DNA of 64,000 nucleotides from Planctomycetota bacterium (GTDB lineage Bacteria > Planctomycetota > SZUA-567 > H5-PLA8). Under the pieces are notes generated by a model. That model was not told where the DNA came from, ran no database searches, and was given only the letters and a program-made list of their open reading frames with translations. Shown piece by piece: positions 14,141 to 30,044 of this stretch (position 1 is its first letter; each line of letters starts with the position of its first letter). The stretch is taken from the NCBI GenBank assembly GCA_027493525.1, contig JAOSKN010000002.1:1271326-1335325 (forward strand), written 5' to 3'. A program made the position numbers and the translations under genes.

Positions 14141-14604
14141 GTGCTCGAACTGGATTTCTTCGCCGCCGAGCCGCTTTCGGCGCAGCCGGGCTCGGGCGAG
14201 ACGGCCTTCGCGTACTCGCCGGAGCTCGTCTTCGACCCGCCGTATGGCTTCGCGCCGTACACGCTTTTGTGGGCCGAGCCGCAGCCGCTCGAACTGGACG
14301 ACGCGGCCCTGGGGGACTCTTCCGGGCTTACTTCGAACTGCGCTTCGACGACGAGCGGGTCGAGAACCTGAACGTCTTCGAGGTCTACGCGCCCGGGGAC
14401 GGGAGCGTCGCGGCGATCCCGCCGTTCATCGACAGCGCACAGGAGGCCGGGGAAGGGCGGCGGCTGGTGGGCGCGCGGCTGGCGCTTTCGGCGGACGGGC
14501 CGGGGACGGCGACGGCCACGCTGTATCCGGGCGTCTCGTGGCTGCTTTTCTTCCGTTCGCGGGAGGGTCAATACCGGCATGAGGAATTGACGATTGACGA
14601 TTGA
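14141..14604 (+). CDS. hypothetical protein with apparent frameshift near 14320
   Basis: Frame 2 is protein-like for 14141 to about 14320, then frame 1 is protein-like to 14604. Confidence 0.35.
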
Positions 14605-14684
14605 CGATTGCGGAATGCGGAATGCGGAATGCGGAATGCGGAATGCGGAATGCGGAATGCGGAATGCGGAATGCGGTTGGATGG
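14596..14684. repeat. (GAATGCG)n, about 11 units
   Basis: Seen in sequence. Confidence 0.9.
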
Positions 14685-14910
14685 GGTGACGCGACGATGC
14701 TGCGATGAAATTTAGTATGTGTTCAAATGAGGATGCAAATGCGCGGGCTGAGGCTCGCGTTTTTTTTTGCTCCATGCCTGCCGGCGGGGACGCAAGCGTA
14801 TGCGGGCGGCTCGTTGCGCTGAGGCGCGGCCCGGCCGGGTATGCATAAAAAAATGCGGAGGATACCGGTCAGGGCGTCCTCCGCATTCGATCGGGTGTGG
14901 AGGATTCCGG

Positions 14911-15144
14911 TTACTCGGCCTTCTTCTCCTCGGTCTTCGCTTCGCCGGTCTTTTCGCCGGTCTTTTCCGTCTTCTCTTCGGTCTTGCCTTCGCCGGTCTT
15001 CGCTTCTTCGCCGGTCTTGGCCTCGGTCTTGGCCTCGTCTTCCGCGTGCCCCATCGGAGCAGCGGCCATCAACCCCAGACCCAACAGCAACGCCAATGCG
15101 AAACGCACAGCACGCCCCCTTTCAATCGGGTTTCTTGCGACCAT
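14911..15144 (-). CDS. small secreted protein with KTE/KTG repeats
   Basis: Signal-peptide-like ALALLLGLGLMAAAPMGHA, followed by a charged repeat. Confidence 0.35.
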   Translation of the reverse strand: MVARNPIERGRAVRFALALLLGLGLMAAAPMGHAEDEAKTEAKTGEEAKTGEGKTEEKTEKTGEKTGEAKTEEKKAE

Positions 15145-15345
15145 CGCGAACCATTCGCGAAGCCGCTATCTTTACCATAACCTGACGAAACCATGTAGCT
15201 TATCTTCAAAGAAGCGGCTTATGTAACATTTGTCCACAAAAGGGATTATGGAATTGCGTGCCGAAATTTCCCACATCGCCTGCCCCGAATCCCTACCTTC
15301 TTATGCCGCGGCGCGAGAATTCTGGCCTGAAATCGGGCGGGTGAA

Positions 15346-15625
15346 CGGCGGTTGCCGGTTGTTGGGGTGCTTTCTTTTTTGTTTGAGGTGCTGGCGATAG
15401 ATCGAGAATTCCGAAGCAACCGAGAACCGATAACTGGCGGGCGGCGCACCTCTGCGCGGTGTGGCGCCAGGGAGGAGGCGACGCGGTTGTCGGTTGCTGA
15501 AGTGCTTGCTATTTGGATTGGAAGTGCAGGCCACAAGAAAAGAGTTCCAAAGCAGCCGGGAACCGGTGGCCGGCGGGGGGCACGGGGCAGCTTCGCTGAC
15601 CCGTGGCACGGCGGGGTGCGAGACG
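15346..15625. repeat. composite repeat element: GTTGCYG array + AT-rich core (GGTGCTTTCTTTTTTGTTTGAGGTGC...AAGAGTTCCAAAGCAACC) + inverted GAACCGG array + CGGCACGGGGCAGCTTCGCTGACCCGTGGCACGG box
   Basis: Related copies lie at 26327-26565, 27686-27885, 29093-29262, and at 20125-20188 joined to 21662-21790 (split by the IS66 element). Confidence 0.8.
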
Positions 15626-15723
15626 GTTGGCGGGGGCGCGCCGGGCGCATGCGCTTTACCGGCGCGCCGCGCCGGATAAAAGAGGGAGGAACGCAACCCC
15701 GCTTAAACCCCAGGAGCCCCGCC

Positions 15724-15954
15724 ATGGCCAAGACCACGTGCCCCATCAGCCGCGAGGAGTTCCGCGCGCACGCGAAGGCGATCAAGATCGAGATCAACGG
15801 GATCCCGATGATGGCCGAGGTGAAGGAATTCTCGACGGGTTCCTTCGGCTGGTATCTGAGCGGGAAGACGGCGCTCGAAATCGGCGGCAAGACGGTCTCG
15901 GTGCAGGTCGGCGCGAACCTGACGGTGATTGGGAGCAAGGAGTTGCCGAAGTAG
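15724..15954 (+). CDS. small hypothetical protein (76 aa)
   Basis: MAKTTCPISREEF follows a purine-rich stretch (AAGAGGGAGGAACG). The remainder of the translation is protein-like. Confidence 0.4.
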   Translation: MAKTTCPISREEFRAHAKAIKIEINGIPMMAEVKEFSTGSFGWYLSGKTALEIGGKTVSVQVGANLTVIGSKELPK

Positions 15955-15956
15955 GG

Positions 15957-16195
15957 CCGGGGGTTGGGGAAAGTATGAAGTATGAAGTATGAAGTATGAA
16001 GAAAGAGAAAGTATGAAGTATGAAATATGAAATATGAAATATGAAGTAAGAGGCTTGAGGCTTGAGGCTTGAGGCTTGAGGCTTGAGGCTTGAGGCTTGA
16101 GGCTTGAGGCTTGAGGCTTGGCAAGAGTGCTTTGGATTTCGTACTTCTTCTTTTTCATACTTCATACTTCATACTTCATACTTCATATTTCATCC
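15957..16195. repeat. nested heptamer arrays: (GTATGAA)n, then (GCTTGAG)n, then inverted (TTCATAC)n
   Basis: Seen in sequence. The outer arrays are reverse complements of each other. Confidence 0.9.
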
Positions 16196-16411
16196 TTTCC
16201 CAAACAAACGGCAAACGGCAAATGGAAAACGGCGCGGGACGGGCGGCTGAATTCGGGAGCATGGAAACATATGGGCTTGGAATTCGGAAGACAGGACAGG
16301 CGGCGAACCGCGGCCGGAGCAGGGGCGCCGGCGGCGTGGGGCGCTTGCCAGGTTCGGGACCTTCCTTTAAGTTAGCTGGATTGAAAGCCTTCAACTCAAA
16401 AGGAGCGCGCC

Positions 16412-16903
16412 ATGGCCAACCCGATCGTCGTTTTCACCACGTCGCAGGGGAGCTTTGAGGTGGAACTGTACGCGGACAAGACGCCGGCGACGGTGCAGAA
16501 CTTCGTCCAGTACGTGAGCGACAAGCACTACGACGGGACGATCTTCCATCGCGTGATCGACGGGTTCATGATCCAGGGCGGCGGTTTCGGGGCGGACGGG
16601 AAGCAGAAGCCGACGCGCGCGCCGATCAAGAACGAGTCGGGGAAGGGCCCGAAGAACTGCAACTACGGGATCGCGATGGCGCGGACGAGCGACCTGAACA
16701 GCGCGACGGCGCAATTCTACATCAACGTGGCCGACAACGCGTTCCTCGACGACGGCCAATACTGCGCCTTCGGGAAGGTGACGCAGGGGACGCAGACGAT
16801 CGACAAGATCAAGAAGGTCGCGGTGGACAAGCCGGGGCGGCTGAGCGAGGCGCAGCCGAAGACGCCGGTGGTGATCGAGTCGGCGACCGTCAAACCGCAG
16901 TAA
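16412..16903 (+). CDS. ppiB: peptidyl-prolyl cis-trans isomerase, cyclophilin type
   Basis: Cyclophilin hallmark motifs are present: FHRVIDGFMIQGGGF and NCNYGIAMAR. Confidence 0.9.
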   Translation: MANPIVVFTTSQGSFEVELYADKTPATVQNFVQYVSDKHYDGTIFHRVIDGFMIQGGGFGADGKQKPTRAPIKNESGKGPKNCNYGIAMARTSDLNSATAQFYINVADNAFLDDGQYCAFGKVTQGTQTIDKIKKVAVDKPGRLSEAQPKTPVVIESATVKPQ

Positions 16904-17095
16904 TCTGTAATCTGTGATCTGTGATCTGTGATCTGTGATCTGTGATCTGTGAGCTGTGGTCTGTGATCTGTGGTCTGTGATCTGTGGTCTGTGAGCTGTG
17001 GTCTGCAATACGTAACGGCGAACGGTAACTGCTGACGCCGCTGGCTAGTGAGGGATTTTTTACAGATTACAGATTACAGATTACAGATCACAGTC
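16903..17095. repeat. (CTGTGAT / CTGTGGT)n, then inverted (CAGATTA)n
   Basis: Seen in sequence. Confidence 0.85.
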
Positions 17096-17102
17096 TTCCC
17101 CC

Positions 17103-17981
17103 ATGCCCATACTCAAAGACCTGGCCGTCGTGCTGCGGACGTACGAGGTCTCGAACACGAGCCTCGTGCTGGTGCTCTTGGGCCGGCGGCTGGGTCAGGT
17201 GCGGGTGCTGGCGAAGGGCGCGCGGCGCTTCCACAAAAAAGGATTCGAGGGCGGCTTCGACCTGCTGGCGCAGGGCGAGGTGGTGGCGTATCCGCGGCGC
17301 GGGGAGGCGCTGTGGATATTGAAGGAGTGGGACGAGCGATCGCGCGCGGCGGGGCTGGGACGCGGGGCGCGGGAGCTGTGGGCGGCCAGTTACCTGTGCG
17401 AACTGGCGGAGGCGCTGACGCGCGAAGGCGCGGGGAGTTCGGGGGAGGACGGCGCGGGCGGGGACGAGGCGCCGGCGCGGCTGCACGGGTTGCTCGGCCG
17501 GGCCGCGCGGGCGCTGGAGTCCGGGGCATCGCCCGGCGCGACGCTGCTCTGGTTCACGCTCCACGCGCTGGAGTCGGCGGGGCTGCTGCCGGAGCTGGGG
17601 GCGTGTTCGCGCTGCGGGAAGGAGCTGGCGCGGAGCCGGCGGCCGGCGCGGCTGAACGCGGAGGGGCTGGTCTGCGAGGGGTGCCTGGCGGGGGAGGCGC
17701 TGGAGCGGCTGCCGGTGGGGGCGGCGCCGCCGGGGACGGTGGCGGAACTGGCGCGGCTGCTGGAGGCCGCGCCGGGGACGCGGCGCGCCGGGGCGGTGTG
17801 GCTGACGCCGGAGCTGCTCGGGGCGCTGCGGCATATCCAGCGCACGGGGAAGCCGGTGAAGCTGAGCGCGGGCGCGGCGCGGGCCGGGGCGCGGGCGCTG
17901 CTGGCGCTGGTCCACAACGCGCTGGAGCGCGACCTGCGCACGCTGCGGGCGGCGGCGAAGATGGTGGTGGAGATGAAGTGA
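17103..17981 (+). CDS. recO: DNA repair protein RecO
   Basis: An N-terminal OB-fold-like region (VVLRTYEVSNTSLVLVLLGRRLGQVRVLAKGARR) plus a CxxC...CxxC zinc finger. Confidence 0.85.
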   Translation: MPILKDLAVVLRTYEVSNTSLVLVLLGRRLGQVRVLAKGARRFHKKGFEGGFDLLAQGEVVAYPRRGEALWILKEWDERSRAAGLGRGARELWAASYLCELAEALTREGAGSSGEDGAGGDEAPARLHGLLGRAARALESGASPGATLLWFTLHALESAGLLPELGACSRCGKELARSRRPARLNAEGLVCEGCLAGEALERLPVGAAPPGTVAELARLLEAAPGTRRAGAVWLTPELLGALRHIQRTGKPVKLSAGAARAGARALLALVHNALERDLRTLRAAAKMVVEMK

Positions 17982-17984
17982 GAC

Positions 17985-18250
17985 CGTCATTGGTCATTGG
18001 TCATTGGTCATTGGTCATTGGTCATTGGTCATTGGTCATTGATGCGTGAAGAAACTAATTCCTGGACGATTTCAAGACATATTTAATGAATATAATGAAC
18101 TATTTAATGATTAATGATTAATGATTAATGATTAATGATTAATGATTAATGATTAATGATTAATGATTAATGATTAATGCTCAATGCTCAATGCTCAATG
18201 CTCAATGCTCAATGCTCAATGCTCAATGCTCAATGCTCAATGCTCAATGC
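17985..18250. repeat. (GGTCATT)n, (TAATGAT)n and (CTCAATG)n heptamer arrays
   Basis: Seen in sequence. Confidence 0.9.
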
Positions 18251-19330
18251 TCAGGCTTCTTCTCGCTTCCCATTCAAATTCCGGCCGATCGCTTCCAGGG
18301 TCGCGTGGTTTCCGTCGAGTTTTCCCCGGTCGATGCGGGCCTGATAGAAGTCGAGGCGGCCGAGGAACCCGCGGAGGCGGGCGGCTTCGACGGCGTGAAA
18401 GTCGGTCCAGTCTCCGGCGCCGGAGGCTTTGAGGAAATGCGCGTTGATGTACTGTTCGTAATTGCGGGGCTCGGGGAGCGCGAAGACGGGCTTGCCGAGG
18501 TAGAGGGCCTCGCCGACGAGCTGGTTGCCGGCGGTGGAGACGAGGGCGCGGCAGGCGGCGAGGTCGTCGAGGAATTGGCGGTCGTCGACGGGGAGGAATT
18601 GGAGCGCGCCGTCGGGGGGCGCGGCGCCGAGGCCGTAGACGCGGACGGGCAGGCCGCAGGCCTTGAGCGCGCCGAGGACGCGCGGGCCTCCGAAGCGGCG
18701 GAGGTAGACGAGCAGGTGGCCGGCGTCGCGGGGCCTGGCGTCGCGGACGGCGGGGCGCAGGAGCACGCCGACCTGCGTGACCGGGCCGTTGCCGCGCTTG
18801 AGCGGCGGGAAGTAGAACGAAGAGACGACGGTCTCGCGCTGCCCGCGGTAGTAGCCCTTGACGATGAGGCTCATGAAGCGCGCGTGGGCGCGCAGGTGGA
18901 AGGGCAGGGCGGAGAGGTCGCAGCAGACGAGGAAGTGCTGGTGCGAGACGCTGACGAAGGGCAGCCCGCTGGCGCGCGCGGCGCGGGGCAGCGCGGGTTC
19001 GAAATCGACGATGGCGAGGTCGGGCGCGTCGGCGTCGATGCGCCGGCGCAGGCCGGCGACGAGCGCGTTCAGATTCCAGAGGTAGCGCGCGCCGGCGGCG
19101 CCGGTCTTGAGGAAGGCGACTTCCTGGCGGCGGTTGTAGCGGAAGCGCAGGCCCGGCAGTTCGACGACCTCGACGTCGGTGCCGGCGTAGAGCGGGGCGA
19201 GGAGCGCGTGGGCGTCGCCGGGGGTGAAGAGGGTGATGCGGTGGCGCGGGCGCAGGAGCTCGACCAGCGTCCGCGCGCGCGCGGCGTGCCCGCGCCCTTC
19301 CCCCGCCATGCTGTAGAAGAGCCGGGCCAT
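18251..19330 (-). CDS. glycosyltransferase (MGT / GT1-GT28-like)
   Basis: MARLFYSMAGEGRGHAARA is a G-rich N-terminal motif typical of UDP-glycosyltransferases. The protein is 359 aa. Confidence 0.75.
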   Translation of the reverse strand: MARLFYSMAGEGRGHAARARTLVELLRPRHRITLFTPGDAHALLAPLYAGTDVEVVELPGLRFRYNRRQEVAFLKTGAAGARYLWNLNALVAGLRRRIDADAPDLAIVDFEPALPRAARASGLPFVSVSHQHFLVCCDLSALPFHLRAHARFMSLIVKGYYRGQRETVVSSFYFPPLKRGNGPVTQVGVLLRPAVRDARPRDAGHLLVYLRRFGGPRVLGALKACGLPVRVYGLGAAPPDGALQFLPVDDRQFLDDLAACRALVSTAGNQLVGEALYLGKPVFALPEPRNYEQYINAHFLKASGAGDWTDFHAVEAARLRGFLGRLDFYQARIDRGKLDGNHATLEAIGRNLNGKREEA

Positions 19331-19802
19331 GGGCGCGGGTGGGGTCCTCGGGCGAAGGAGGCGAAGTACGAACGGCAAACTGCAAACGGCAAGAACCAAA
19401 TTCCAAACAAACGGCAAACGGCAGACTGCGAACGGCTGATTGCAGACGGCAAGTGGACTATCGGTGAGGGGTGTGGGGAGGGGATGAAGGGCAGGGAAAG
19501 ATGCGGGGAAGGGGGTATTCAGTTCCGAGTTCCGAGTTCCGAGTTCCGAGTTCCGAGTGCCGGGGAAACTGCTTCTAACCACAGAGAACACAGAGATCAC
19601 GGAGGAAGAAAGTCTAGAAAAATTTTTCTCCGTGTCCTCTGTGCTCTCTGTGGTTCCATTCCGAGTGCCGGGTTCTGAGCGGCGCCGCTTGCTGCTGCAA
19701 CCCTTTCAGGGTTGGTGAGCAATGGGGCGGCGGACCCAGGGTAGGCGCGGCGCGCCAACCCTGGGCTGGGATATGCAAGCCCTTCGGGCTTGGGCGGCGG
19801 GA

Positions 19803-20093
19803 TCAGGAGGGGCTGGCGTCTTCGTCCTTCTTGCGCAGGCGGAGGCGGATGAGGATGCGGTTGCGCAGGCGGATCGCGGCGGGGAGTTCGGAGCCGAGGA
19901 TGGTGAGGCCGAGGAGGATGATCGGGGTGCCGGTCGGTCCGGGGAGCGGGAGGATCACGATCCCGGCGAGGAGGACCGTGGACCCGGCGACGCAGACGAT
20001 GACGCGGCGCGGCCACTTGAGGAGTCCGGCGCGCGGGGTTTTTCCCGGCGCGGCGCCGGGTGCGCGGTCGCGGTCGGTGGCGTCGGAGGCCAT
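19803..20093 (-). CDS. small membrane protein (PGPGW-like)
   Basis: Two hydrophobic helices with a PLPGPTGTPIILLG motif. Confidence 0.4.
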   Translation of the reverse strand: MASDATDRDRAPGAAPGKTPRAGLLKWPRRVIVCVAGSTVLLAGIVILPLPGPTGTPIILLGLTILGSELPAAIRLRNRILIRLRLRKKDEDASPS

Positions 20094-20188
20094 GGGGGCA
20101 TGATAGTCGGTCGGGGCGGGGATGCCATGGGTCTTGGTTGCCGGTTGTCGGTTGCTGGTTGCTGGTTGCTGAGGTGCTTTCTTTTCTG

Positions 20189-21661
20189 GTAACCGTTCAG
20201 TTCCCTACCGCTGCAAGGAATGCCGGAGCCTTTGCGCCGGTGCGGTGAGCAGCCAAGGCCCTGCGCAGATAGTCAAGGATGGGACGCTTTTGCAAACGCA
20301 AGGTCTGCACGGTGGTCAAGATCCGTTCGGTGAAACGGCAGCCTGCGGTACTGTGATTGCCGAAGCTCCCTTTGCGCCACAGCACCGCCGGACGCAACAT
20401 CCGTTCGGCGTGGTTGTTGGTCGGTTCGATGCCTTCGACGGCCGCGAAGGTCCACAGCGCGTCGTAGACTTTCAGCACGCGTCTGCAAAAGCGCTTGGTT
20501 TTGGGGTCCGCGCCCCTGCTTCCGAGCCGGAGCGTTCTCTGGAAACGCAGGCGTATCGGTTGCAACCGCACGTGTAGCGCGGCACGGTCGCAACGCCGGT
20601 CTTTGAAATCCTTCCAGGCCGCAAAGACCGCTCGGGCGGTCTTGCGGCCCGCTCGGCCGAGCGGTTGTGTCGCGGATCCCAGGTCGATCAACTTCTGAAA
20701 ATCGCGCTTGAGGTGCGCCCAGCAAATTTGCCGCTGCCGCGGCGGCAGGTGCGCGTAGGCGCCCCAGCGGTCGGAGCCGAGGATGCCGCAACACGCCCCC
20801 AGCAACGCCTTCAGGCCGTCCTTACCCCGGTGGGCGTGAATTTGAAAGGCTGCGACGCTCCGCGTGGCTGCCACCCACAGCCAACACAGCTTGCCACCCT
20901 TCGCCCAGCCGGTTTCATCCACGTTTTTGAAAGCCGCCCCACGCACGGCCGCCAGCGCCTGCGCGTGAGGCCCTTCCAGCGCGCCGCTCATCTCGTGTTC
21001 GAGCTTGATCACCGTGCCCAGGGATAGCGGGACCCCAAAGACGGTCTCGGCGAGTTCCTGGACGTTGCGCTTGCTGGCGTGGCCACGCCCACTCAGATAC
21101 GACAACGCCGCCGCCAGGTTGGGACCCAGCGCATGGGCTTGAATCTCCGGCGGAATCTCCGCGCGGGTGCGGCAGCCGCAGCACGGACAGGTGCGTGCGT
21201 GCCCCTGGTATTCGGTGATTTCGGCCGGCTGCGGCGGCAACTCCGCGACTTGATGCCAAGTCGGAGGCGGATCGTGTGGCCCTGGCCGCTTAGACAAGGG
21301 GGCTTGGCATTCCGCACATACGTGCGGCACGTAATGGACCACGTGCGTGACCCGTTCGGGCGGCAAACGTACACGGTGATGGCCCGGATGTCCGGGTTGT
21401 CCGCCGGGTTTGCGGCCGCTCGGCTTCTTGGCGGCTGGAGGCTTCTGCCAGGGCGCATCGGACGACGGTGGTTTGGAAGAGTTCGAGGAATTCTGGTTCA
21501 AGCGCTCGGAAAGCCGCTCCAGCTTGGCTTCCAATTCTTCGATCCGCGCCAGGAGCACCGCGCAATTCGGACAAGCCGGGTTGGGTTTAAGCTCGCGCAC
21601 ACATACAGTATCGGATGGCGTGACGTAAAAAATGAGCCTTCATAGGGGACTGAACGGTTAC
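20189..21661. mobile_element. IS66-family insertion sequence with a single transposase gene, about 20-bp inverted ends, and 8-bp TSD CTTTTCTG
   Basis: Left inverted end is GTAACCGTTCAGTTCCCTAC; the right end reverse-complements to GTAACCGTTCAGTCCCCTATG. The direct repeat CTTTTCTG sits at 20181-20188 and 21662-21669. Confidence 0.8.
20197..21600 (-). CDS. IS66 family transposase
   Basis: The N-terminal CPNC zinc finger, leucine zipper and NSSNSSKPPSSD motif are characteristic of IS66 transposases (TnpC). The protein is 467 aa. Confidence 0.85.
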   Translation of the reverse strand: MRELKPNPACPNCAVLLARIEELEAKLERLSERLNQNSSNSSKPPSSDAPWQKPPAAKKPSGRKPGGQPGHPGHHRVRLPPERVTHVVHYVPHVCAECQAPLSKRPGPHDPPPTWHQVAELPPQPAEITEYQGHARTCPCCGCRTRAEIPPEIQAHALGPNLAAALSYLSGRGHASKRNVQELAETVFGVPLSLGTVIKLEHEMSGALEGPHAQALAAVRGAAFKNVDETGWAKGGKLCWLWVAATRSVAAFQIHAHRGKDGLKALLGACCGILGSDRWGAYAHLPPRQRQICWAHLKRDFQKLIDLGSATQPLGRAGRKTARAVFAAWKDFKDRRCDRAALHVRLQPIRLRFQRTLRLGSRGADPKTKRFCRRVLKVYDALWTFAAVEGIEPTNNHAERMLRPAVLWRKGSFGNHSTAGCRFTERILTTVQTLRLQKRPILDYLRRALAAHRTGAKAPAFLAAVGN

Positions 21662-21868
21662 CTTTTCTGTTTGAGGGGCAGGCAACAGGAAGAGAGTTCC
21701 ATAGCAACCGGGAACTGACAACCGAGAACTGGCAACTGGCGGGCGGCACGGGGCAGCTTCGCTGACCCGTGGTACGGAGGGGAAAAAAACCGCCCAGGCC
21801 GGGGGCTGGCGGCCTGGGCGGGGGCGGCCTTCGGACTCCTCCTGGGGGAGAGGAGCGGAAGGGCCGGG

Positions 21869-23479
21869 TTACTTGGCGCTGCCGGTGCGGCCGAGGCGGG
21901 CGGTGTAGAGGAGGCTCGCGGCGGCCTGGTACTCCCGCGCGCCGAGGCGGAGCTGGAGGTCCACGCCGACCGGGACGCGGCGGACGGTCGCGTTGAGGAG
22001 CCCTTCGTCGTCCCAGTTGGCGCCGAGGTCGCCCTTGAGGGCGAGGGTGAAGGCGCCGGTGCGCGCGGCGAGGCGGAAGAGGCTCGCGCCGTTGCGGCCG
22101 AGGCCGCGGCGGTCGAGGGTGAACGTGAGCGCCGCGCCGCCGAGGTCCACTTCGACGAGGGCGCCTTCGGGGGCGAAGCCGGCGGGGAGGGCGAGAAGGC
22201 CGCGGACGGTCGCGGCGTCGCGGCCGGGCCGGGCGAAGTTGCGGGCGAGGCTCGCGCGGAGGCGTTCCACGGCCAGGGGTTCGGCGGGCTCGGCGGGGGC
22301 GGCTTCGATCACGACCTGGAAGCTGGCGCTGTCGGTCCCGCCTTTGCCGTCGCCGACTTCGACGTTCACGGTGTAGGTTCCGGGCGCGGCGTAGGCGTGA
22401 ACGGCGTTGGCGCCGGAGCCGCTCGCGCCGTCGCCGAAGGTCCAGGCGAAGGAGAGCGGGTCGCCGTCGGCGTCGGAGGCGCTGGCGCTGAAGAGGATCT
22501 CGTCGCCGGGGCGCGCGGGGAGCGAAGCGGCGTCCCAGGCGAGCAGTTGGGGCGCGGCGTTGGCGGGCGGCGGGGGCGGCGGGGCGAGCGGGCCGTCGAG
22601 GACATCGCCGAGGAAGGCGAGGAGCTGCGCGTCGGAGACCTGCGCGGGGTTGGCGAGGTCCAGGCCGGCGAGGGCGGCGGGAACGTCGGGGCGGCGGTAG
22701 CGGATGTAATCGAAGAAGGCGACGAGGTCGGGGTTGCCGCCGGCGATGACGCTGGTGTTGTAGGCGTAGGGGTCGGCGCCGCTCATGGAGGCCCAGTCGG
22801 TGTAGGCGGTGAGGCCGACCTGGAGGCTGGCGGGGAAGTCGGGGCGGTGGTAGCGGCGGTGGACGGCCCAGGCGCCGCCGGGGAAGCGGCGGAGGACGAG
22901 GACGACCGCGCCGATGCGCGCGACGCGGATCTCGGCGCGCGGCGCGGCGTCGTCGATCTCGAGGAAGGAGTCGCTGGCGATGGTGGACTTGACCTCGAAC
23001 TGGAACGTGCCGGGGGCGTTGGCCGAGCCGATGGAGAGGAAGATGTAGTTCTCGCCGCCGGGGGCCCAGGTCTGCGGGGTGACGTCGCGGGGGGCGCGGA
23101 TCATGATCCCGGCGAGGGAGTAGTAGGCCTGCGGGGCGCCGGCGCCGGCGCGGCGGCGCGGTTCGACGTCGGTGGTGACGACGAAGTCGCCGGCGACGGG
23201 CTTGAAGGCGAGGACGCCGCGGTAATCCCGATACCAGCCGCTGGCGTAGGGCATCAGCATCAAGCGTCCGGGAGAGGACTGCCCGACGTCGGCGGCTTCG
23301 AGTTGGTCGGCGTTCCACTGCTCCACCGTGTTGACGCGCTGGAAGCGCGCGAAGGCGTCCGGGTCGTCGAACTCCTCGGAGAGCGGGGCCAGGTCGTCCT
23401 GGGCGAGGGCGGGCGCGGCGGCGGCGAGCGCGAGGATGCAGGCCGCGGCCAGGCGCCGGAAGGGGAGGGATCGGGTCAT
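21869..23479 (-). CDS. secreted protein with PKD domain
   Basis: A signal peptide, and a PKD motif: LSFAWTFGDG...HAYAAPGTYTVNVEVGDGKGG. Confidence 0.7.
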   Translation of the reverse strand: MTRSLPFRRLAAACILALAAAAPALAQDDLAPLSEEFDDPDAFARFQRVNTVEQWNADQLEAADVGQSSPGRLMLMPYASGWYRDYRGVLAFKPVAGDFVVTTDVEPRRRAGAGAPQAYYSLAGIMIRAPRDVTPQTWAPGGENYIFLSIGSANAPGTFQFEVKSTIASDSFLEIDDAAPRAEIRVARIGAVVLVLRRFPGGAWAVHRRYHRPDFPASLQVGLTAYTDWASMSGADPYAYNTSVIAGGNPDLVAFFDYIRYRRPDVPAALAGLDLANPAQVSDAQLLAFLGDVLDGPLAPPPPPPANAAPQLLAWDAASLPARPGDEILFSASASDADGDPLSFAWTFGDGASGSGANAVHAYAAPGTYTVNVEVGDGKGGTDSASFQVVIEAAPAEPAEPLAVERLRASLARNFARPGRDAATVRGLLALPAGFAPEGALVEVDLGGAALTFTLDRRGLGRNGASLFRLAARTGAFTLALKGDLGANWDDEGLLNATVRRVPVGVDLQLRLGAREYQAAASLLYTARLGRTGSAK

Positions 23480-23825
23480 CTCGAGGCTCCTTTAAGAAGG
23501 GAGGGCGCTGCGCCCTCGTGGTTCGAAGGGCGCTAGGGCAAATGGGAGTCCTGGGGGATGCTGGGTTGGTGAATTCGTGCATCATATTATATATGAATAG
23601 GTTGTAATAATAGAGGTATGTTGTTTAATACAACATCTTGTCTCATCTCTAATTCGGGCCGGATCGCGGGAGCGGCTTGGGCCGCCGCGGGCGTTCAAAA
23701 AACTTACGGCGTATGAGATTCGAATGAGGTGTTTGCACGTGCGGGGCGAATCCAACAACGCCGCATCTAAACCGCAGAGCCCGCAGAGAGCGCAAAGGCA
23801 GTAAGGGTAAGGATGAAGGGCCGCG

Positions 23826-23995
23826 GCCTTAAAGTGCGTCCTAAATCGTCTCGCAGTCGTCTTCGGGCGGCGGGCTTCGCGATGCGTCGTTGGCCTCCTC
23901 GCCGGATGCTCGTCCCGATACGGCTCGTTCGGCCGCCTCGCCTCGCTTGCCCGGCGCTCCGAAGCCGCCTCGCGATCCGGTTTTAGGGCGCACTC
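23826..23995. repeat. about 165-bp dispersed repeat (copy 1 of 2)
   Basis: Near-identical to 33846..34015, on the same strand. Confidence 0.7.
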
Positions 23996-24213
23996 TTAGA
24001 ACACGCGCAGGGTTTTCCTGCCCGACATGCTTGAAATCGCGAGAAGACTTCTCCGCGCACTCTGCGGTTCATGCCGCGTGGCGGTGTTCGAGAGGGCCGG
24101 CGGGGGCGGTGGAGAAGGGTACGAGTCGAGGCGGCGGATCGAGTAGGATTGTACGAGTGTCCCAGCGTATCCATCCCGGGAAGCGGACGGATCAACCCCA
24201 GGGAGAACGGACG

Positions 24214-26313
24214 ATGAACGGGAACGGGAAACTGCGGAAGCGGATGCTGGCGGCGCTGCTCGTGTGCGCGGCCGGGGCGTGGCCGGCGCGCGGTGCGGAG
24301 TGGCACGTGGACCAGCGTCACGCGGGGGCGAGCGACGCGAACGCGGGCGGGGCGGAGGCGCCGTTCAAGACGCTCGCGAAGGGGGTCGCTTCGGCGCGGG
24401 CGGGGGACACGATCCGGGTGAAGCCGGGCATGTACCGCGAGGAGCTGGTCTTCAAGGCCTCGGGCGCGCCGGGGAAGCGGATCGTGCTGAAGGCGGAGGC
24501 GGGCCCGGGCGAGCGGGTGATCCTGAGTGGGTCGGAGGAGCTGAAGGGCTGGCGTCCGAGCACTCGGGAGGAGGCGCGCGGGAACCCGCATTTCGAGCGG
24601 ATCTACGTGGCGGAGACGGACGTGAAGCCCTTCGGGATCTTCGTGGACGGGGTGGCGGCGAAGCTGGCGCGGATGCCGCGGAACGAGAAGTCGTGGTTCG
24701 CGGCGGAGTCGAGCGCGGGGACGTCGATCCGCGACGCGCAGCACCTGACGCAGCCGGCGGGCTTTTACGAAGGCGGGACGATCGTGGTGCGGCATCCGAG
24801 CACCAACCGGTTCCGCGACACGATCGTGCGCTACGACGCGGAGGCGCGCGAGCTGCATTTCGCCTCGAAGATGACCGAGTCGGTCTCGGGGAAGGACCAG
24901 TACTGCGTGCAGAACCTCCCGAACCTGATCGAGGGGCCGGGGCAGTTCGCATGGGAGGCGCGCGGGGAGCGCTTCCGGATTTTCCTCTGGCCGCCGGAGG
25001 GCGGAGCGCTGGAAAAGCGGTTGGTCGAGCAGCCGGTGCGCGGGGCGAGCGGGTTTCTGGCGAGCTGGGATCCCGGGGTGGGGCACCTGACGCTGGACGG
25101 GCTGGAGATACAGCACGGCGTCTCGGGCGCGATCGGGGGCTCGGGCGGGAAGGACCTGGAGATCGTGAACTGCATCCTGCACCACAACCTGGGCGGGGGG
25201 AGCCGGCATGCGATCGCGCTGAACCGGCAGGAGGGCGCGCTGATCCGGCACAACATCGTGATGCATAACAACCACAGCGGGATCGGGCTCTCGTACGGCC
25301 GGGAGCTGCGGATCGAGGAGAACTGGATCTTCAAGAACCGCGTCGACGGAATGGCGATGGGCTGGGAGACGCGGAAGGTGACGGTGGCGCGGAACCTGAT
25401 TCAGGACCAGTGGGACGGCGGGCATCCGGACGGGTTCCAGACCTTCCGGCAGGTGAGCGAGCTGACGCTGGACAGCAACCTGATCTTCAACACGGGGCAG
25501 ATGTGGCAGTGCGGGAGCACCTCGAACAGCCGGATGGTGAACAACATGTTCGTGGGCTCGCACGACAACGGGCTGAGCATCACTTCGCGGATCATCTTCG
25601 ACAAGTACGGCAACGAAGGGCAGACGTGGGCGTTCAACACGCTGGCGTTCTTCAAGCTGGGAGGCATGAGCCTGGTGAAGGACTTCAAGGTGCACGACAG
25701 CGTGATCGCGCCGGGGACGCGGATGGCGCTGATGAGTTCGTTCCTGAAGTACGAGTGGACGAGCGACCGGAACCTGTACTGGGCGCCGGGGGCGAAGGAG
25801 GCGACGTTCCACTGGAAAGGGGAGTCGCTGAACTTCGAGAAGTACCGCGAGGCCTCGGGGCAGGACCGGCATTCGAAGTACGGCGCGCCGTGCTTCCGCC
25901 GCGCGCCGGCGCACTACAGCGGCGGGACGGACGGGGCGCACGAGCGGGGCAAACTGTTCCTTTCGAACATGAGCCCGAGCGAGTGGGAGGCCGGGGACCA
26001 CGTCGAGGTGAACTGGGACGGGATCGCGCGAAAGATCAAGGCCTCGGGCGAGGGCTGGATCGAGTTTGAGCCGGCGCTGGCCGAGGCGCCGGACGGCCCG
26101 CGCTTCGTGGCCGCCAACTGGAAGAAGGAGACGAACTTCGAGCTGGACCTGCGCGTGACGGACGAGAGCCCGGCGAAGGGGCTGGGCGAGGGCGGCAAGG
26201 ACGCCGGCTCGAGCGTGGACATCCAGGCGTACCTGCGGCTGGATTTCGACGGCGACGGCAAGCGCGATGTACCCGAACTGCCGAAGGCGCTGGAGCACCT
26301 GAAGCCGCGCTAG
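24214..26313 (+). CDS. right-handed parallel beta-helix repeat protein (putative polysaccharide lyase or hydrolase), secreted
   Basis: The ORF is protein-like from MNGNGKLRKRMLAALLVCAAG (signal peptide) onward. The GDTIRVKPGMY motif and NxxG repeats suggest a pectin-lyase fold. Confidence 0.75.
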   Translation: MNGNGKLRKRMLAALLVCAAGAWPARGAEWHVDQRHAGASDANAGGAEAPFKTLAKGVASARAGDTIRVKPGMYREELVFKASGAPGKRIVLKAEAGPGERVILSGSEELKGWRPSTREEARGNPHFERIYVAETDVKPFGIFVDGVAAKLARMPRNEKSWFAAESSAGTSIRDAQHLTQPAGFYEGGTIVVRHPSTNRFRDTIVRYDAEARELHFASKMTESVSGKDQYCVQNLPNLIEGPGQFAWEARGERFRIFLWPPEGGALEKRLVEQPVRGASGFLASWDPGVGHLTLDGLEIQHGVSGAIGGSGGKDLEIVNCILHHNLGGGSRHAIALNRQEGALIRHNIVMHNNHSGIGLSYGRELRIEENWIFKNRVDGMAMGWETRKVTVARNLIQDQWDGGHPDGFQTFRQVSELTLDSNLIFNTGQMWQCGSTSNSRMVNNMFVGSHDNGLSITSRIIFDKYGNEGQTWAFNTLAFFKLGGMSLVKDFKVHDSVIAPGTRMALMSSFLKYEWTSDRNLYWAPGAKEATFHWKGESLNFEKYREASGQDRHSKYGAPCFRRAPAHYSGGTDGAHERGKLFLSNMSPSEWEAGDHVEVNWDGIARKIKASGEGWIEFEPALAEAPDGPRFVAANWKKETNFELDLRVTDESPAKGLGEGGKDAGSSVDIQAYLRLDFDGDGKRDVPELPKALEHLKPR

Positions 26314-26326
26314 GCGGCGGCCGGGG

Positions 26327-26565
26327 GAGCGACGCGGTTGCTGGTTGTCGGTTGTCGGTTGTCGGTTGCCGGTTGCTGGTTGCTGGTTGCTGAGGTGCTT
26401 TCTATTTTGGTTCGAGGTGGAGGCGGTACATCAAGAGGTTCGAAGGAACCGGAAACCAAGACTTGAGAACCGACACCTGACACCCGGCACCCAGGAACCA
26501 GGAACCAGGAACCGGGAACCGGTGACCGGCAACTGGCAACCAGCAACTGGCAACTGATTTCGGCT
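26327..26565. repeat. composite GTTGCYG/GAACCGG repeat element
   Basis: Seen in sequence. Confidence 0.8.
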
Positions 26566-26573
26566 GGCGTTTT

Positions 26574-27626
26574 TCAGTGCCGGAAGAGGCGCTCGCATTC
26601 CGCGGGCGAGAGGGCGCGGTCGTAGAGGCGCAGTTCGTCGAGGGCGCCGACGAAGCCGTTCTCCTGGTCCCTGTCGCCGCCGACGACGAGAATGCCGACA
26701 TTGGCCTGGCTCAGGCGCTCCAACAACGGATCGGAGCACGCCAGGGGCGCGCCGTCCAGGCGGGCCGTGACGCGCTCGCCGTCCCAGACCAGGACCGCGT
26801 GGCGCCAGCGCCCGTCGAAGAGTTCGGGGGCGGGAAAGACCAGGCGCTTCCGGCCTGCGCGCAGGCAGAGCGCGTCATCGGCCAGTTCCAGGGAGGCGAA
26901 GGGATAGATCTTGAAGACCGTGAACTGGGCGCGTTCCGTTCGCGCCGGGCTGATCCAGAACGAAATGGTGAACGCGCGCAAGTTGCTCCACGGGGGCGCG
27001 GCGCGGACGAGGAGCTTGGGCACGGGCGAGCGCGCGGGCTGGGCGGCAAAGCGCAGGGCGCGGCCGAAGGGCCCGGCGTCGAAGGCGGCCTGCCCGTCCT
27101 GCCAGGAGACCTCCTGAGCCAGCGGGCTGGCGTCTTGGACGCGGTCGTTGAAGTCGAGGTGCAGGATCAGGCCCCGCGCGGGCGCGGATTCCTCCGCGGG
27201 GCCGCCGGGAGGCGCATCCGCGGCACGGTCCGGCTGGCGCATCGGCGCGGCGGGGCCGCGCGAGGCGCTGGCCATGAAGAGGACGGTGGCGGAGAAGACG
27301 GCGGCGGCGAGGGCGCTGGCGAGGCCGAGGGCCCACTTCGTGGCGCGCGGCGCAGGATGTGGCGCGGGTTGCGCGCGCGGCGCGGGGGCGGGGCGGTGCG
27401 GCATGCGCGGGGTGGGCGGCTGGGCCTGGGCGGCGTCGGCTTGCTGGACGAGCTTGCGGGCCTGGGATTCGTTGAGGGGCAGGGTCTCGAGGGTCACGAT
27501 GCCGGCGGCGCAGTCGGCGCAGAAGACCCCGCGGAGTTTCTTGTCGCGCGCGGCGCCGGCCTCGAGGTCGTGCTCGGTCAGGCGCGCGCCGCACTTTTCG
27601 CAGTAATAGAATTTCAAGCCATCCAA
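26574..27626 (-). CDS. LamG-like jellyroll (concanavalin A-like) domain protein with N-terminal zinc ribbon and TM helix
   Basis: Cys pairs at YYCEKCG and FCADC form a zinc ribbon, followed by a hydrophobic helix. The C-terminal domain is LamG-like. Confidence 0.65.
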   Translation of the reverse strand: MDGLKFYYCEKCGARLTEHDLEAGAARDKKLRGVFCADCAAGIVTLETLPLNESQARKLVQQADAAQAQPPTPRMPHRPAPAPRAQPAPHPAPRATKWALGLASALAAAVFSATVLFMASASRGPAAPMRQPDRAADAPPGGPAEESAPARGLILHLDFNDRVQDASPLAQEVSWQDGQAAFDAGPFGRALRFAAQPARSPVPKLLVRAAPPWSNLRAFTISFWISPARTERAQFTVFKIYPFASLELADDALCLRAGRKRLVFPAPELFDGRWRHAVLVWDGERVTARLDGAPLACSDPLLERLSQANVGILVVGGDRDQENGFVGALDELRLYDRALSPAECERLFRH

Positions 27627-27685
27627 GCCCCGCGCGGCCCATGGCGATGCTATGCATTCGGCGCGGCGAATTCAAGACGGGCGGG

Positions 27686-27885
27686 GGCGGGATGGTTGCC
27701 GGTTGCCGGTTGTCGGTTGCTGGTTGCTGGTTGCCGGTTGCTGAGGTGCTTTATTTTTTGTTTGGTGGTGCAGGCAACACAAAAAGAGTTCCAAAGCAAC
27801 CGGCAACCGGCAACCGAGAACCGGCAACCGCTGAGCGGCACGGGGCGGCTTCGCTGACCCGTGGCACGGCGGGGTGGGCGGGATG
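27686..27885. repeat. composite GTTGCYG/GAACCGG repeat element with CGGCACGGGGCGGCTTCGCTGACCCGTGGCACGG box
   Basis: Seen in sequence. Confidence 0.8.
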
Positions 27886-28009
27886 CTCGCGGTAACCGGA
27901 GAACGAAAAGACGCGCGGGCGGGACGCCCACGCGAGCCGGCGAGGACGCCGGCGCTACGGCGGCTGCGCCGACCCATGGCACGGCATGTGGGATGCCGGC
28001 GCTACGGGG

Positions 28010-29007
28010 TTACTTCAGGGCGTCGACGCCGGCTTGGGCGACTTCGTGATCCTTGGCGATGGAGTCGCCGCTGACGCCGATGGCTCCGACGAAGCGGCCC
28101 TGGGCGTCGAAGATGGGGAGTCCGCCGGGGAAGGTGATCAGTCCGCCGTTGCTGTGCTCGATGCGGTAAAGCGGGGCCTTGGCTTCCTTGTCGAGGCGCG
28201 AGAGGTCGCCGATGACGCCGGTGGGGAGCTTGAAGCACCAGGAGGTGCGGGCCTTGCGGTGCGCGATGTCGGCGCTGCCGGGCCAGGCGTCGTCCTGCTG
28301 GCCGGCGGCGAGGACGGTGCCTTCGGCGCCCAGGACGTAGATGTGCATCTTGACCTTGGTCTTGGTGACGTCGCTGTCGGTCGCGGCGGCCTTCTTGAGC
28401 GCGGCGTGGAGCGCGACGCCGGCGCCGTAACTGGAGAGGGTGGGGACGGCCTGGGCGGCGTTCTTGCCGAGGTCCTTGGCCTTCTCGACGCCGGCCTGGG
28501 CGACGGCTTCGTCGTTGTCGACGGTGTCGCCGCTGACGCCGATCGAGCCGATGAGCGCGCCGGCCTCGTTGACGATGGGCAGGCCGCCGGGGAAGGTGAT
28601 CAGTTCGCCGTTGCTGTGCTCGATGCCGTACAGCGGGGCGCCGGCCTTCCCGTCGGTGCGGGAGAGTTCGCCGAGGGCGCGGGTGGCGAGATTGAAGCAC
28701 CAGCTCGTGCGGGCCTTCTTCATCGCGATGTCGGCGCTGCCGGGCCACGCGCCGACGGCCTGGGAGCCGGCGAGGAGCGTGCCTTCGCGGCCCAGGACGT
28801 AGACGTGCATCTTGCACTTTTGGCCCTTGTAGACGCCGCTCTCGGTCTTCTCGGCCTTCTTCTGGGCTTCCTCGACGATCTTCTCGGCGGCCTCGCGCGT
28901 GAGCGTGGAGACCTGGGTGAAGAGCGGCGGTTTGGGCTCTTCGCCCGCGCGGAGGGCCGGGGCGCAGAGCAGCAGCAGGGCGGCGAGGGCGGCGAGGCGG
29001 CGGGGCA
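28010..29007 (-). CDS. tandem GlcG/DUF336 (heme-binding HbpS-like) domain protein, secreted
   Basis: The ORF is protein-like from MPRRLAALAALLLLCAPALRA (signal peptide). The GSIGVSGD motif appears twice, in two GlcG-like halves. Confidence 0.65.
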
Positions 29008-29092
29008 TGGGAAGCTCCTTTACCTGTCCGGGTTCGGGTGACAAGGGGGCGGTTGTATAGAGTTGCGCGGAGGGAGGCAACTGAAGTTCCGG

Positions 29093-29262
29093 GTGGCGGT
29101 TGCCGGTTGCCGGTTGCTGGTTGCCGGTTGCTGAGGTGCGTTCTTTTTTGTTGGAGGTGCAGGCAACAAGAAAAGAGTTCCAAAGCAACCGCGAACCGGC
29201 AACCGAGAACCGGGAACCGGCGGTCGGCACGGGGCAGCTTCGCTGACCCGTGGCACGCGTGC
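29093..29262. repeat. composite GTTGCYG/GAACCGG repeat element with conserved box
   Basis: Seen in sequence. Confidence 0.8.
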
Positions 29263-29346
29263 CCCTCCTCGAAGAGGAGGGGAAAGTGCGCACAGCGAAG
29301 TTAACTACCTTAGGCAGAACTGTTTTGCACTCACGCATTGGGAAAC

Positions 29347-29434
29347 TGGAGGAGGACAGAGGACTCGAACCCCACTCCCGAAGGAGCGATCCGTTTTCGA
29401 GACGGTCCCGGCACGCCTGTCCGGTTTATCCTCC
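29347..29434 (-). tRNA. tRNA-Ser(CGA)
   Basis: Manual cloverleaf: GGAGGAT/GTCCTCC acceptor stem, long variable arm, CCA encoded. Confidence 0.8.
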
Positions 29435-29446
29435 CGGTGCGGGCGC

Positions 29447-30022
29447 CTATCCGACGCCCTGCATCCGCTGGCCTAGTACGAACGGCGCCCAACGCGGCTC
29501 GTGATGGACGATTCGCGGCGGGAGCTGTTCGGGGCGCGCGGGCCGGCTGCGCAGCGCCATGCCCGCCGTCTCCGGCGTGCGGTCGCGCTTGCGCCGGTTG
29601 CACGGCACGCAGGCGGCGACGCAGTTGGCCCAGACTGAGCAGCCCCCCTGTGCGCGCGGCAGGACGTGGTCCACGGTCAGCTTGTGCGCCGGCAGATGCG
29701 CGCCGCAGTACTGGCACGTGTAGCCGTCCCGGCGGAGCACGTTGTACCGGGAGAACGCCGGCTTGCGCTCGGGCACGCGGTCGTAGAAGGTCAGCACGAT
29801 CACCTCGGGCGCGAGGAGGTCGCACGTCGCCGTGCGCACCCGCGGCGAATCGGGCGCGCAGGCCACGCGGGTCCAGGACGCGAAATCGTGCGTGGAGTAG
29901 TCCTCCAGCCGCACGGCGCGCGCGTGGCCGTCCACGAGCTTGCAGAGCGCGCGGAGCACCGACGTCACGTCGATCGGCGTCCAGTGCTTGTTGAGGACCA
30001 GCGTCGGCCGTTCCAGTACCAC
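29447..30022 (-). CDS. HNH endonuclease
   Basis: The HNH motif is present: YTCQYCGAHLPAHKLTVDHVLPRAQGG...NCVAACVPCNRRK. Confidence 0.8.
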   Translation of the reverse strand: MVLERPTLVLNKHWTPIDVTSVLRALCKLVDGHARAVRLEDYSTHDFASWTRVACAPDSPRVRTATCDLLAPEVIVLTFYDRVPERKPAFSRYNVLRRDGYTCQYCGAHLPAHKLTVDHVLPRAQGGCSVWANCVAACVPCNRRKRDRTPETAGMALRSRPARPEQLPPRIVHHEPRWAPFVLGQRMQGVG

Positions 30023-30044
30023 CAGCGTGTCCTTTCCGTTGCGT

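Follow-up and report, generated by a model that had tools for sequence, protein, structure and literature searches.

A family of palindromic, non-coding repeat elements of 90-220 bases, the arms of which are arrays of a seven-nucleotide unit, is dispersed through a repeat-rich island in the genome of a Planctomycetota bacterium (GenBank assembly GCA_027493525.1, contig JAOSKN010000002.1, positions 1,271,326 to 1,335,325). This stretch of 64,000 nucleotides is referred to as the window, and all positions below are counted from its first letter. The island occupies window positions 1-35 kb and holds a phage-like head-tail gene cluster, an IS66-family element, miniature inverted-repeat transposable elements (MITEs), an HNH gene, a gene resembling those of Avd/23S-IVS proteins (Avd-like gene) and 31 tRNA genes. 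We found eight homologous copies of the element, all in spacers between genes, and give about an even chance to the reading that it is a non-coding mosaic repeat, palindromic and specific to this lineage, of the kind represented by BOX, enterobacterial repetitive intergenic consensus (ERIC), Correia and repetitive extragenic palindrome/bacterial interspersed mosaic element (REP/BIME) sequences, with slippage-prone heptamer arrays as its arms.

Copies and architecture of the element

Each copy consists of a left heptamer array, an AT-rich core and an inverted right array, and some copies are followed by a 34-nt hairpin, here called the box. Seven aligned cores (mean column identity 84%) were used to build a profile of the AT-rich part, and a search of the window with it returned eight homologous copies with E-values of 1e-12 to 4e-22, seven on the + strand (matches at 10602, 15357, 15492, 26385, 27736 and 29126, plus a split copy at 20164 and 21662) and one full copy on the - strand (8039-7974). 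The copies, together with the insertion sequence (IS) that splits one of them, are as follows.

7950-8050, - strand: full composite copy in reverse orientation (core profile, E 2.3e-12), ending 15 nt before ATG 8065 and leaving the Shine-Dalgarno sequence AAGGAG free
10581-10691, + strand: composite copy without box (core profile, alignment and fold), ending 25 nt before ATG 10716
15350-15434, + strand: short composite copy, the first of a tandem pair (core profile), followed by a diverged box-like hairpin at about 15441-15470
15485-15571, + strand: composite copy, the second of the tandem pair (core profile, alignment and fold)
20136-20188, + strand: left array and left core of the IS-split copy, at a distance of 43 nt from a minus-strand PGPGW gene that starts at 20093
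20189-21661, - strand: IS66-family insertion sequence with a single open reading frame (1,473 bp), located in the AT-rich hairpin tip and not part of the family itself
21662-21740, + strand: right core and right array of the IS-split copy (core profile)
26336-26556, + strand: longest composite copy (87 pairs, -133 kcal/mol), without box, between the convergent stops 26313 (+) and 26574 (-)
27691-27830, + strand: composite copy downstream of a minus-strand HbpS-like gene and 65 nt away from a minus-strand LamG-domain gene, the start of which is at 27626
29090-29221, + strand: composite copy flanked by tRNA-Ser (29347-29434, -) on one side and by the start of the minus-strand HbpS-like gene (29008) on the other

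A preliminary description of this DNA had listed at least five copies (15346, 20125 joined to 21662, 26327, 27686 and 29093). At all five sites the order of array, AT-rich core and inverted array was found again, but the copy placed at 15346 turned out to be two (15350-15434 and 15485-15571), and 10581-10691 and the reverse-oriented 7950-8050 had been missed. The 56-nt core sequence quoted there matches only one site at up to three mismatches, which shows the family to be diverged rather than near-identical: the copies are about 60-89% alike, the best pair being 89% identical over 170 nt, and they vary chiefly in the count and the variants of their heptamer units.

The left array is built from (GGTTGCC/GCT/GTC)n, with the consensus GGTTGCY, and the right array from GGCAACC, AGCAACC and GACAACC (GRCAACC) together with GRGAACC variants. 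That the right array is inverted had been recognised before, but not that the two arrays are mutually reverse-complementary. Since the two halves of the AT-rich core are imperfectly complementary as well, each copy amounts to a single long hairpin, imperfectly paired, the tip of which is the AT-rich core. This conserved tip measures about 55 nt and is flanked by heptamer arms, the complementarity of which amounts to 75-91% over 35-60 nt. The predicted hairpins comprise 30-87 pairs with minimum free energies (MFE) of -30 to -133 kcal/mol, and for the three copies tested the z-scores of -8 to -10 against shuffled sequence indicate far better folding than that of the shuffles. A consensus fold of the cores retains 20 pairs. 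All copies further have in common a fixed asymmetry between the core halves (TGAGGTGC versus the complement of GTTCCAAA), and such shared half-core asymmetries mean that the copies come from one ancestor and are not independent products of slippage; they are homologous.

In a comparison with Rfam 15, no family reached its gathering score for the hairpins, and only plant microRNA-precursor models, which amount to "long hairpin", appeared below threshold; in the window as a whole, only tRNAs and Acido-Lenti-1 (13007-13052) pass. Two further candidates were rejected. The GGTTGCY/GRCAACC arms do not fit the RYYYAAC...GTTRRRY core sites of integron attC elements, no integrase was found among the proteins scanned and the flanking genes are not cassette-like. 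The sequences do not fit IHF sites either.

Hairpin modules around the element

At up to three mismatches, the 34-nt box occurs five times in the window, always on the + strand (5454, 15578, 21744, 27836 and 29225), where shuffled sequences lead one to expect 0.00 occurrences. It forms a separate 10-bp hairpin that is 100% paired in all five occurrences, one of the pairs being A-U, G-U or G-C depending on the copy. The box had been described as a part of every copy, yet it is absent from the 26327 copy, from 10581-10691 and from 15350-15434, and at 5454 it stands without an AT-rich core. The dispersed homologous composite family as such was thus borne out, but the box is not a fixed part of it. 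The box occurrences and the other small modules, several of which emerged from self-comparison of the window, are listed here.

5454-5487, + strand: box without AT-rich core, with three mismatches and a compensatory CGGC/GCCG variant, outside the range of the preliminary description
15578-15611, + strand: box, 113 nt upstream of ATG 15724
21744-21777, + strand: box (pattern search)
27836-27869, + strand: box, followed by module M5 (27863-27960) with a minus-strand terminator-like hairpin (27934-27912)
29225-29258, + strand: box (pattern search)
5088-5121, + strand: left-type array (GGTTGCT)n that opens the spacer 5060-5565 and is able to pair with the inverted array at 5500-5544
5500-5544, - strand: inverted left half, AACGCACCTTAGCAACC plus (RRCAACC)n, ending 21 nt before ATG 5565
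7427-7500, + strand: (GGTTGCT)8 array plus degenerate left core, beginning 3 nt past the stop at 7424 and pairing with 8023-8063 across the Avd-like gene (7575-7937)
29262-29285, + strand: CCCCTCCTC-GAGGAGGGG hairpin module, elsewhere at about 4455-4478, 5163-5186 and 9680-9704 and also in spacers of the related cluster L005 (see below)
4-50 and 5302-5348: module M1 (self-comparison)
108, 13333, 13460 and 13587: module M2 (self-comparison)
4378-4477, 5088-5187 and 9649-9704: module M4 (self-comparison), also found in L005 spacers
5356-5450 and 27863-27960: module M5 (self-comparison)

At 864, 4360 and 5088, (GGTTGCY)n arrays are joined to other modules. Taken together with the core-less box, this makes the composite element the commonest combination in a BIME-like mosaic in which the box is not obligatory; the box is an independent module in a wider mosaic of hairpin modules.

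The extragenic palindromes of 20-40 bp that are combined into mosaics in REP/BIME families have counterparts here in the box, M2, M4 and M5, which occur in various combinations. The likeness to the families described by Di Nocera et al. (2013; PMC3733652) extends to the short imperfect palindromes (box, M2, M5) in variable extragenic mosaics and to the strong co-orientation of the modules. In REP sequences, however, one end of the palindrome is marked by the tetranucleotide GTAG or CGTC (PMC3733652). The box has neither, and a GTAG is present in the M5 palindrome alone, where it lies on the minus strand. There is also no gene of the RAYT type in the window, a Y1 transposase (RAYT) being absent among the window proteins scanned, and the large heptamer-armed hairpin has no REP counterpart. 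GTGGCAC was considered as a REP-like tag and dismissed, as it is not enriched (10 found, 8.3 expected).

Two observations concern the small modules themselves. The M5 copies (5402-5450 and 27912-27960) combine a minus-strand terminator-like hairpin and T-run with the GTAG-tagged REP-like palindrome GTAGCGCCGGCGTCCTCGCCGGC (minus strand). A 127-nt tandem repeat of 2.6 copies at 96% identity (13333-13656) holds in each unit a CACACCAC-GTGGTGTG hairpin, which is also present at 108-139, and a GGGAACC mini-array.

Heptamer arrays in the island and in related genomes

Tandem Repeats Finder (TRF) and a period-7 scan of the window detected about 40 heptamer arrays between 864 and 34627, which represent more than ten unit types; the scans returned none in 37-64 kb. 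The GGTTGCY composite family is the commonest type among these intergenic arrays; other units include GTGATCT, GTTCACT (x32), GAATGCG, AAGTATG, GAGGCTT, GTCATTG, TTAATGA, AATGCTC and AGTTCCG. All arrays of at least 21 nt lie in spacers or touch stop codons and hence qualify as intergenic heptameric simple sequence repeats (SSRs; at least two units, non-coding). Analogous giant hairpins of inverted arrays are found at 15956-16212, 16912-17093 and 3546-3628. The longest array of the window, (ACTGTTC)32, is 98% perfect and lies in 13719-13943 after the 127-nt tandem repeat; a sequence complementary to it, (AGTGAAC)4, is found about 800 nt further upstream (12906-12933). Small heptamer arrays also occur between tRNA genes (34145-34629).

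The window begins within a phage-type major capsid gene (Pfam Gp13-like, 1.6e-24; PHROG 247, 2.5e-29), which is followed by head-tail and depolymerase-like genes. This head-tail cluster (terminase, Gp13-like capsid, depolymerase-like fibre and unknown genes) is syntenic in three Planctomycetota metagenome-assembled genomes (MAGs), namely at 1-14600 of the window, at 1-15650 of L005, the terminase-capsid-tail locus of a related MAG, and at 400-12900 of L006, the cluster of a third genome. Window positions 162-14567 are syntenic with L005 at 70-89% nucleotide identity, and L006 was matched at the protein level. The genes flanking the cluster differ among the three MAGs and no integrase lies within reach; the cluster could be a prophage remnant or a gene-transfer-agent-like cluster. 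No close relatives of the capsid or of the 76-aa protein were found in IMG/VR. The RecO protein encoded in the window shows 100% identity to one from a Planctomycetota MAG.

Heptamer arrays are kept in the same spacers in these three diverged genomes, with unit sequences that differ between the clusters. L005 has short arrays of 2-3.6 units and, before start codons, (CAACATC)n; L006 has (TTCCAAT)9, (GAAACCC)n and (AACCAGA)3 just upstream of ribosome-binding sites, and past the stop of its capsid gene (AATTTTG)n and (CAAAATT)n make up a hairpin. The host-like DNA in all three genomes contains no heptamer arrays. Directly beside the (TTCCAAT)9 array of L006, a run of N (5130-5240) marks an assembly gap; heptamer arrays appear to break short-read assemblies, and their frequency in MAGs is probably underestimated.

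One could imagine that a small DNA-binding protein binds the 7-bp units cooperatively and that the island uses the arrays as operators, as insulators or for partition/packaging, much as the omega repressor/centromere protein of plasmid pSM19035 binds contiguous WATCACW heptads. The unbroken 7-bp periodicity in direct and inverted arrangement, the resemblance of some units (TGTGATC, complement GATCACA) to the omega heptad and the confinement of the arrays to one mobile-looking island would agree with this. However, more than ten unrelated units would require many proteins, known operators are much shorter than arrays of up to 32 units, the window proteins scanned include no ribbon-helix-helix or ParB-like gene and the units are not conserved between the related clusters, and we consider such a role very unlikely.

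Position relative to genes

Two composite copies lie in co-directional spacers (7950-8050 and 10581), those at 15350/15485, 20136, 27691 and 29090 lie beside divergent or minus-strand starts, and 26336-26556 is the only one between convergent stop codons. For six of the eight copies, the distance to a start codon is 15-115 nt, the half next to the start being the left one in four copies and the right one in two. The earlier statement that the elements are located upstream of genes therefore holds for most copies, but they take both orientations relative to the gene and one sits between two gene ends.

It had further been proposed that the AT-rich core resembles a promoter or UP element, in which case it would recruit RNA polymerase and drive the adjacent gene. 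In favour of this, the core is the sole AT-rich stretch in a region of 67% GC, most copies are close to a start codon as just described, and composite promoter-terminator repeats exist in T4-like phages (PMC4122927). A consensus scan of 1-30.3 kb found no -35/-10 pair in any core on either strand, a result that covers sigma-70-type promoters and, Planctomycetota promoters being poorly known, is not a strict exclusion. Moreover, the core lies at a hairpin tip between GC-rich arrays with no core promoter hexamers downstream, its orientation is mixed, one copy separates convergent stops, and a better promoter-like pair (TTGAAT-17-TAGCAT) is found outside the element, upstream of 27626. As such, a promoter function appears highly improbable.

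For 11 of the 14 + strand genes, an array that is G/T-rich begins 0-30 nt past the stop codon. A/C-rich arrays end 10-25 nt before the starts 3651, 4665, 5565, 8065, 10716, 14002 and 17103 and leave the Shine-Dalgarno sequence free, and A/C-rich arrays, in the sense of the minus-strand genes, are also found 43-82 nt before the starts 20093, 27626 and 29008. Of these starts, 10716 was set from L005 homology, and 29008 and 27626 were re-determined as well. The deposited 722-aa protein (M5U26_16880) begins at an ATG inside the right arm of a composite copy (region 10659-10716); as the L005 homologue and conservation favour ATG 10716, a repeat arm has here been annotated as coding sequence.

This placement raises the question whether the arrays control translation. 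The A/C-rich, G-poor array 5' of the ribosome-binding site would be the functional part, as an unstructured leader, a standby site or a binding site for a protein on the mRNA, while the G/U-rich array after the preceding stop would mask it, so that the number of units would set the strength of the hairpin and tune or couple neighbouring cistrons of the phage-like operon. Apart from the distances to starts and stops given above, the same placement in L005 and L006 with unrelated units speaks for this explanation, and in Beggiatoaceae a post-transcriptional role has been proposed for TAACTGA arrays beside start codons (PMC4679880). The closeness to stop and start may be trivial, however, because a palindrome inserted into a short spacer necessarily abuts stop and start; close abutment is expected if palindromes entered short spacers and later insertions entered the hairpin tips. 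The IS66-family insertion is a direct case of later DNA entering a tip, and the Avd-like gene likewise lies between pairing arms. The 26336 copy between convergent genes, the fact that the relatives mostly carry an A/C-rich array without a complementary partner and the lack of significant covariation also speak against translational control, which we regard as unlikely. That the spacer ends pair in the MFE fold was dropped as evidence, as any GC-rich RNA tends to do so, and only explicit long array helices were used.

Mobility and lineage

Neither core nor box was found by the core-profile search in L005, L006 or the RecO-region loci of the relatives. An exact 28-nt box pattern had no match in the GTDB species representatives, IMG/VR or the JGI metagenomes, and an exact 21-nt pattern of the left junction had none in the GTDB species representatives or IMG/VR and matched a single 1-kb contig in the JGI metagenomes. 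Owing to this absence from relatives and scanned collections, the family appears to be lineage-specific and recent. On the metagenome contig (L004), the gap that separates an ABC-transporter ATPase gene from the gene upstream of it contains, at 685-755, a small hairpin, (GGTTGCT)3-GAGGTGCCTCACGGTGA-(CCAGCAA)3. It shares the GAGGTGC junction and is either distantly related or a product of convergence. Differences in gene content between the window and L005 fall in array-filled spacers. The copies are absent from the syntenic L005 spacers, which are too diverged to define empty sites.

The IS66-family element (Pfam DDE_Tnp_IS66, 1.4e-30) splits the 20125/21662 copy, as had been noted before, and it has the inverted repeats GTAACCGTTCAGT and is flanked by CTTTTCTG, an 8-bp target duplication without mismatches. 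The composite family had itself been proposed to be a MITE, that is, a deletion derivative of a transposon that is mobilised in trans by a transposase recognising its ends. The copies are indeed palindromic, non-coding, multi-copy, exclusively intergenic and 60-89% alike, and their absence from L005 would suit a mobile element. In contrast to the IS, however, none of the eight copies has a target-site duplication, no direct repeats having been found when the flanks of all of them were read. Their ends are variable heptamer arrays instead of fixed terminal inverted repeats (TIRs), and the only transposase in the window, that of the IS66-family element, has unrelated ends. Two genuine MITE families in the same island provide a direct contrast with their sharp TIRs of 10-15 bp. 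It is thus quite improbable that the composite repeat is a classical MITE.

The first of these families is a pair of 169-nt repeats (2466-2634 and 9908-10076) that are 89% identical and have 15-bp TIRs, CTAGTGTCCTGTAAG; the second, MITE-like family is a 160-nt pair (23836-23995 and 33855-34014, 89%) with the ends GCGYCCTAAA...TTTAGGRCGC, the first copy of which overlaps the called TTG start (23890) of a beta-helix gene; the real start of this gene is probably further downstream. A diversity-generating retroelement made up of the Avd-like gene and the 169-nt pair was considered and rejected: there is no reverse transcriptase and, because the mismatches are not adenine-specific, the pair is not a template/variable pair of such an element.

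Comparison with known repeat families

The pneumococcal BOX element (boxA-boxBn-boxC) is a modular intergenic repeat with variable tandem units, the terminal modules of which pair into a long stem-loop. Our element is like BOX in being modular, with variable internal tandem units, in its dispersal near genes in both orientations and in being non-coding without a defined transposase. It differs in that a 7-nt unit on both arms takes the place of the 45-nt boxB, in the lack of sequence similarity and of an Rfam match, in the host phylum and in that the copies, within the window, are confined to one island.

The RNA of ERIC and Correia (NEMIS) sequences folds into hairpins, and cleavage of these by RNase E or RNase III alters the stability of the flanking mRNA. 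Like the present element, both kinds of sequence are imperfect palindromes of about 100-150 nt in transcription units or spacers, with an AT-rich centre and predicted long double-stranded RNA stems. Correia sequences, however, have fixed TIRs and a TA target duplication, neither of which was found here, and in contrast to both families the arms of our element are simple-sequence arrays of variable length.

The PeSL repeats of T4-like phages are composite repeats that mediate modular shuffling (PMC4122927). The family resembles them as a composite repeat with a stem-loop that is reiterated between small genes in a plastic phage-type region, with direct copies that bracket genes and coincide with differences in gene content between relatives (PMC2839356, PMC4122927). 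PeSLs nevertheless hold a recognisable early promoter, which is not detectable here, and lack tandem-repeat arms.

Lastly, heptameric SSRs are over-represented in the intergenic DNA of many bacteria, sometimes as inverted pairs (PMC4692102), and in Beggiatoaceae TAACTGA arrays lie just upstream of start codons (PMC4679880). The arrays in the window share with these, and with cyanobacterial short tandemly repeated repetitive (STRR) sequences, Nostoc GGGGAYT and Xanthomonas GGGAATC (PMC4692102), the intergenic location, the tandem 7-nt units of variable copy number, the frequent position beside start or stop codons and the occasional inverted pairs that are able to form stem-loops. Those genomes, however, use one or a few units genome-wide, whereas more than ten types are found here in one island of about 35 kb, and the GGTTGCY type has spread as a unit together with the box and a conserved non-repetitive core, to which it is fused.

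Proposed origin and role

On the reading that we prefer, to which the even chance stated at the outset applies, the element would have multiplied recently and locally in this lineage via an insertion or a template-switch/recombination route, and its arms would lengthen and shorten through replication slippage. The hairpin tip may preferentially tolerate new DNA, as the IS insertion and the Avd-like gene suggest, which would lead to nested spacers. Where transcribed, the element would place a long double-stranded RNA stem between cistrons, which might act as a protector of mRNA 3' ends, as a partial terminator or as a target of double-strand-specific RNases, in the manner of ERIC, Correia and the intercistronic hairpins of phage T7. 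The direct copies at 26336, 27691 and 29090, which bracket the LamG and HbpS-like genes, could further be substrates for cassette-like gain and loss, as PeSLs are. If the element acts at all, its most likely role would be that of a hairpin spacer in RNA or DNA.

One property of the hairpins at first seems to point to selection on RNA. Every one of them folds better on the + strand, by 6-48 kcal/mol, with 96 G-U pairs as opposed to about 11 on the other strand. The same stems, however, contain 19 G-G and no C-C mismatches, and the + strand of the region is rich in G: in 1-29 kb its GC skew at four-fold-degenerate sites is +0.3 to +0.68 whatever the strand of the gene, compared with values of about +0.1 in 37-64 kb. 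Three recently arrived genes depart from this pattern, namely those of the Avd-like protein (-0.31), the IS66 transposase (-0.04) and the HNH protein (-0.14). The L005 cluster (1-18000) is skewed too, at +0.2 to +0.27 overall, and L006 is not; the spacers of these two related clusters show no sense-strand folding advantage. Because the asymmetry mirrors the G excess of the + strand and is missing in the spacers of the relatives, we treat it as compositional and reject it as a sign of selection on RNA.

The loss of this argument is one of several points that count against the proposed origin and role. Covariation in the core is not significant with seven sequences, nearly all pairs being invariant or changed on one side, and neither is that in the box with five sequences, 210 of 500 control shuffles being as good. 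Three copies adjoin minus-strand genes, and effects of the element at the RNA level are something that we infer. There is no mobilising enzyme in the window, no target duplication at the eight copies and no clean empty site in L005. Finally, the persistence of arrays in three genomes hints at a function or at a conserved generating mechanism, which a purely selfish model leaves unexplained.

One could speculate that the paired arrays are a conserved device for expression control of a phage-derived, possibly gene-transfer-agent-like, Planctomycetota head-tail cluster. The G/U-rich array after a stop would pair with the A/C-rich array before the next ribosome-binding site, the spacer would fold away and stop and start would be drawn together, with coupling, shunting or processing by RNase as possible results. 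The output of each structural gene would then be tuned by slippage in the arms, and among the versions of the device the self-propagating GGTTGCY composite would have been the most successful. We think it distinctly unlikely that the arrays are such a device.

Other features of the island

The 31 tRNA genes all lie on one strand (29347-36806, -) and cover most amino acids; two protein genes, one for an HNH endonuclease (29447-30022) and one for an SPFH/Band-7 protein (31347-32819), break the array. The Acido-Lenti-1 RNA at 13007-13052 (-) scores 49.6 bits and thus above gathering, and an inverted second copy at 13214-13258 (+) falls just below threshold (36.4 versus 37 bits); both are in a 1.1-kb spacer, between degenerate inverted arms at 12963-12998 and 13086-13121. 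The homologue of a 516-aa L005 protein is split over two frames (8065-9336 and 8774-9631), the deposited protein having 423 aa, which reflects either a frameshifted pseudogene or an assembly indel in 8065-9631. The minus-strand gene 28010-29008, the product of which has a signal peptide followed by two HbpS-like haem-degrading domains, contains an internal duplication (28023-28322 and 28485-28784) with about 79% nucleotide identity.

Significance

To our knowledge, a dispersed hairpin element with stems of heptamer arrays, packed into a phage-derived island, has not been described. Palindromic intergenic repeats and heptameric SSRs, which have so far been described separately, are fused here, and since the stems of the hairpins are slippage-prone arrays, the stability of each hairpin can change in steps of 7 bp. 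On the practical side, the arrays break assemblies, as at the N gap of L006, and mislead gene callers, as with the 722-aa protein, the start of which was placed inside a repeat arm. Because three diverged genomes keep arrays in the same spacers of the phage cluster while the nearby host DNA has none, the question why bacteria accumulate 7-nt repeats becomes testable in a small operon.

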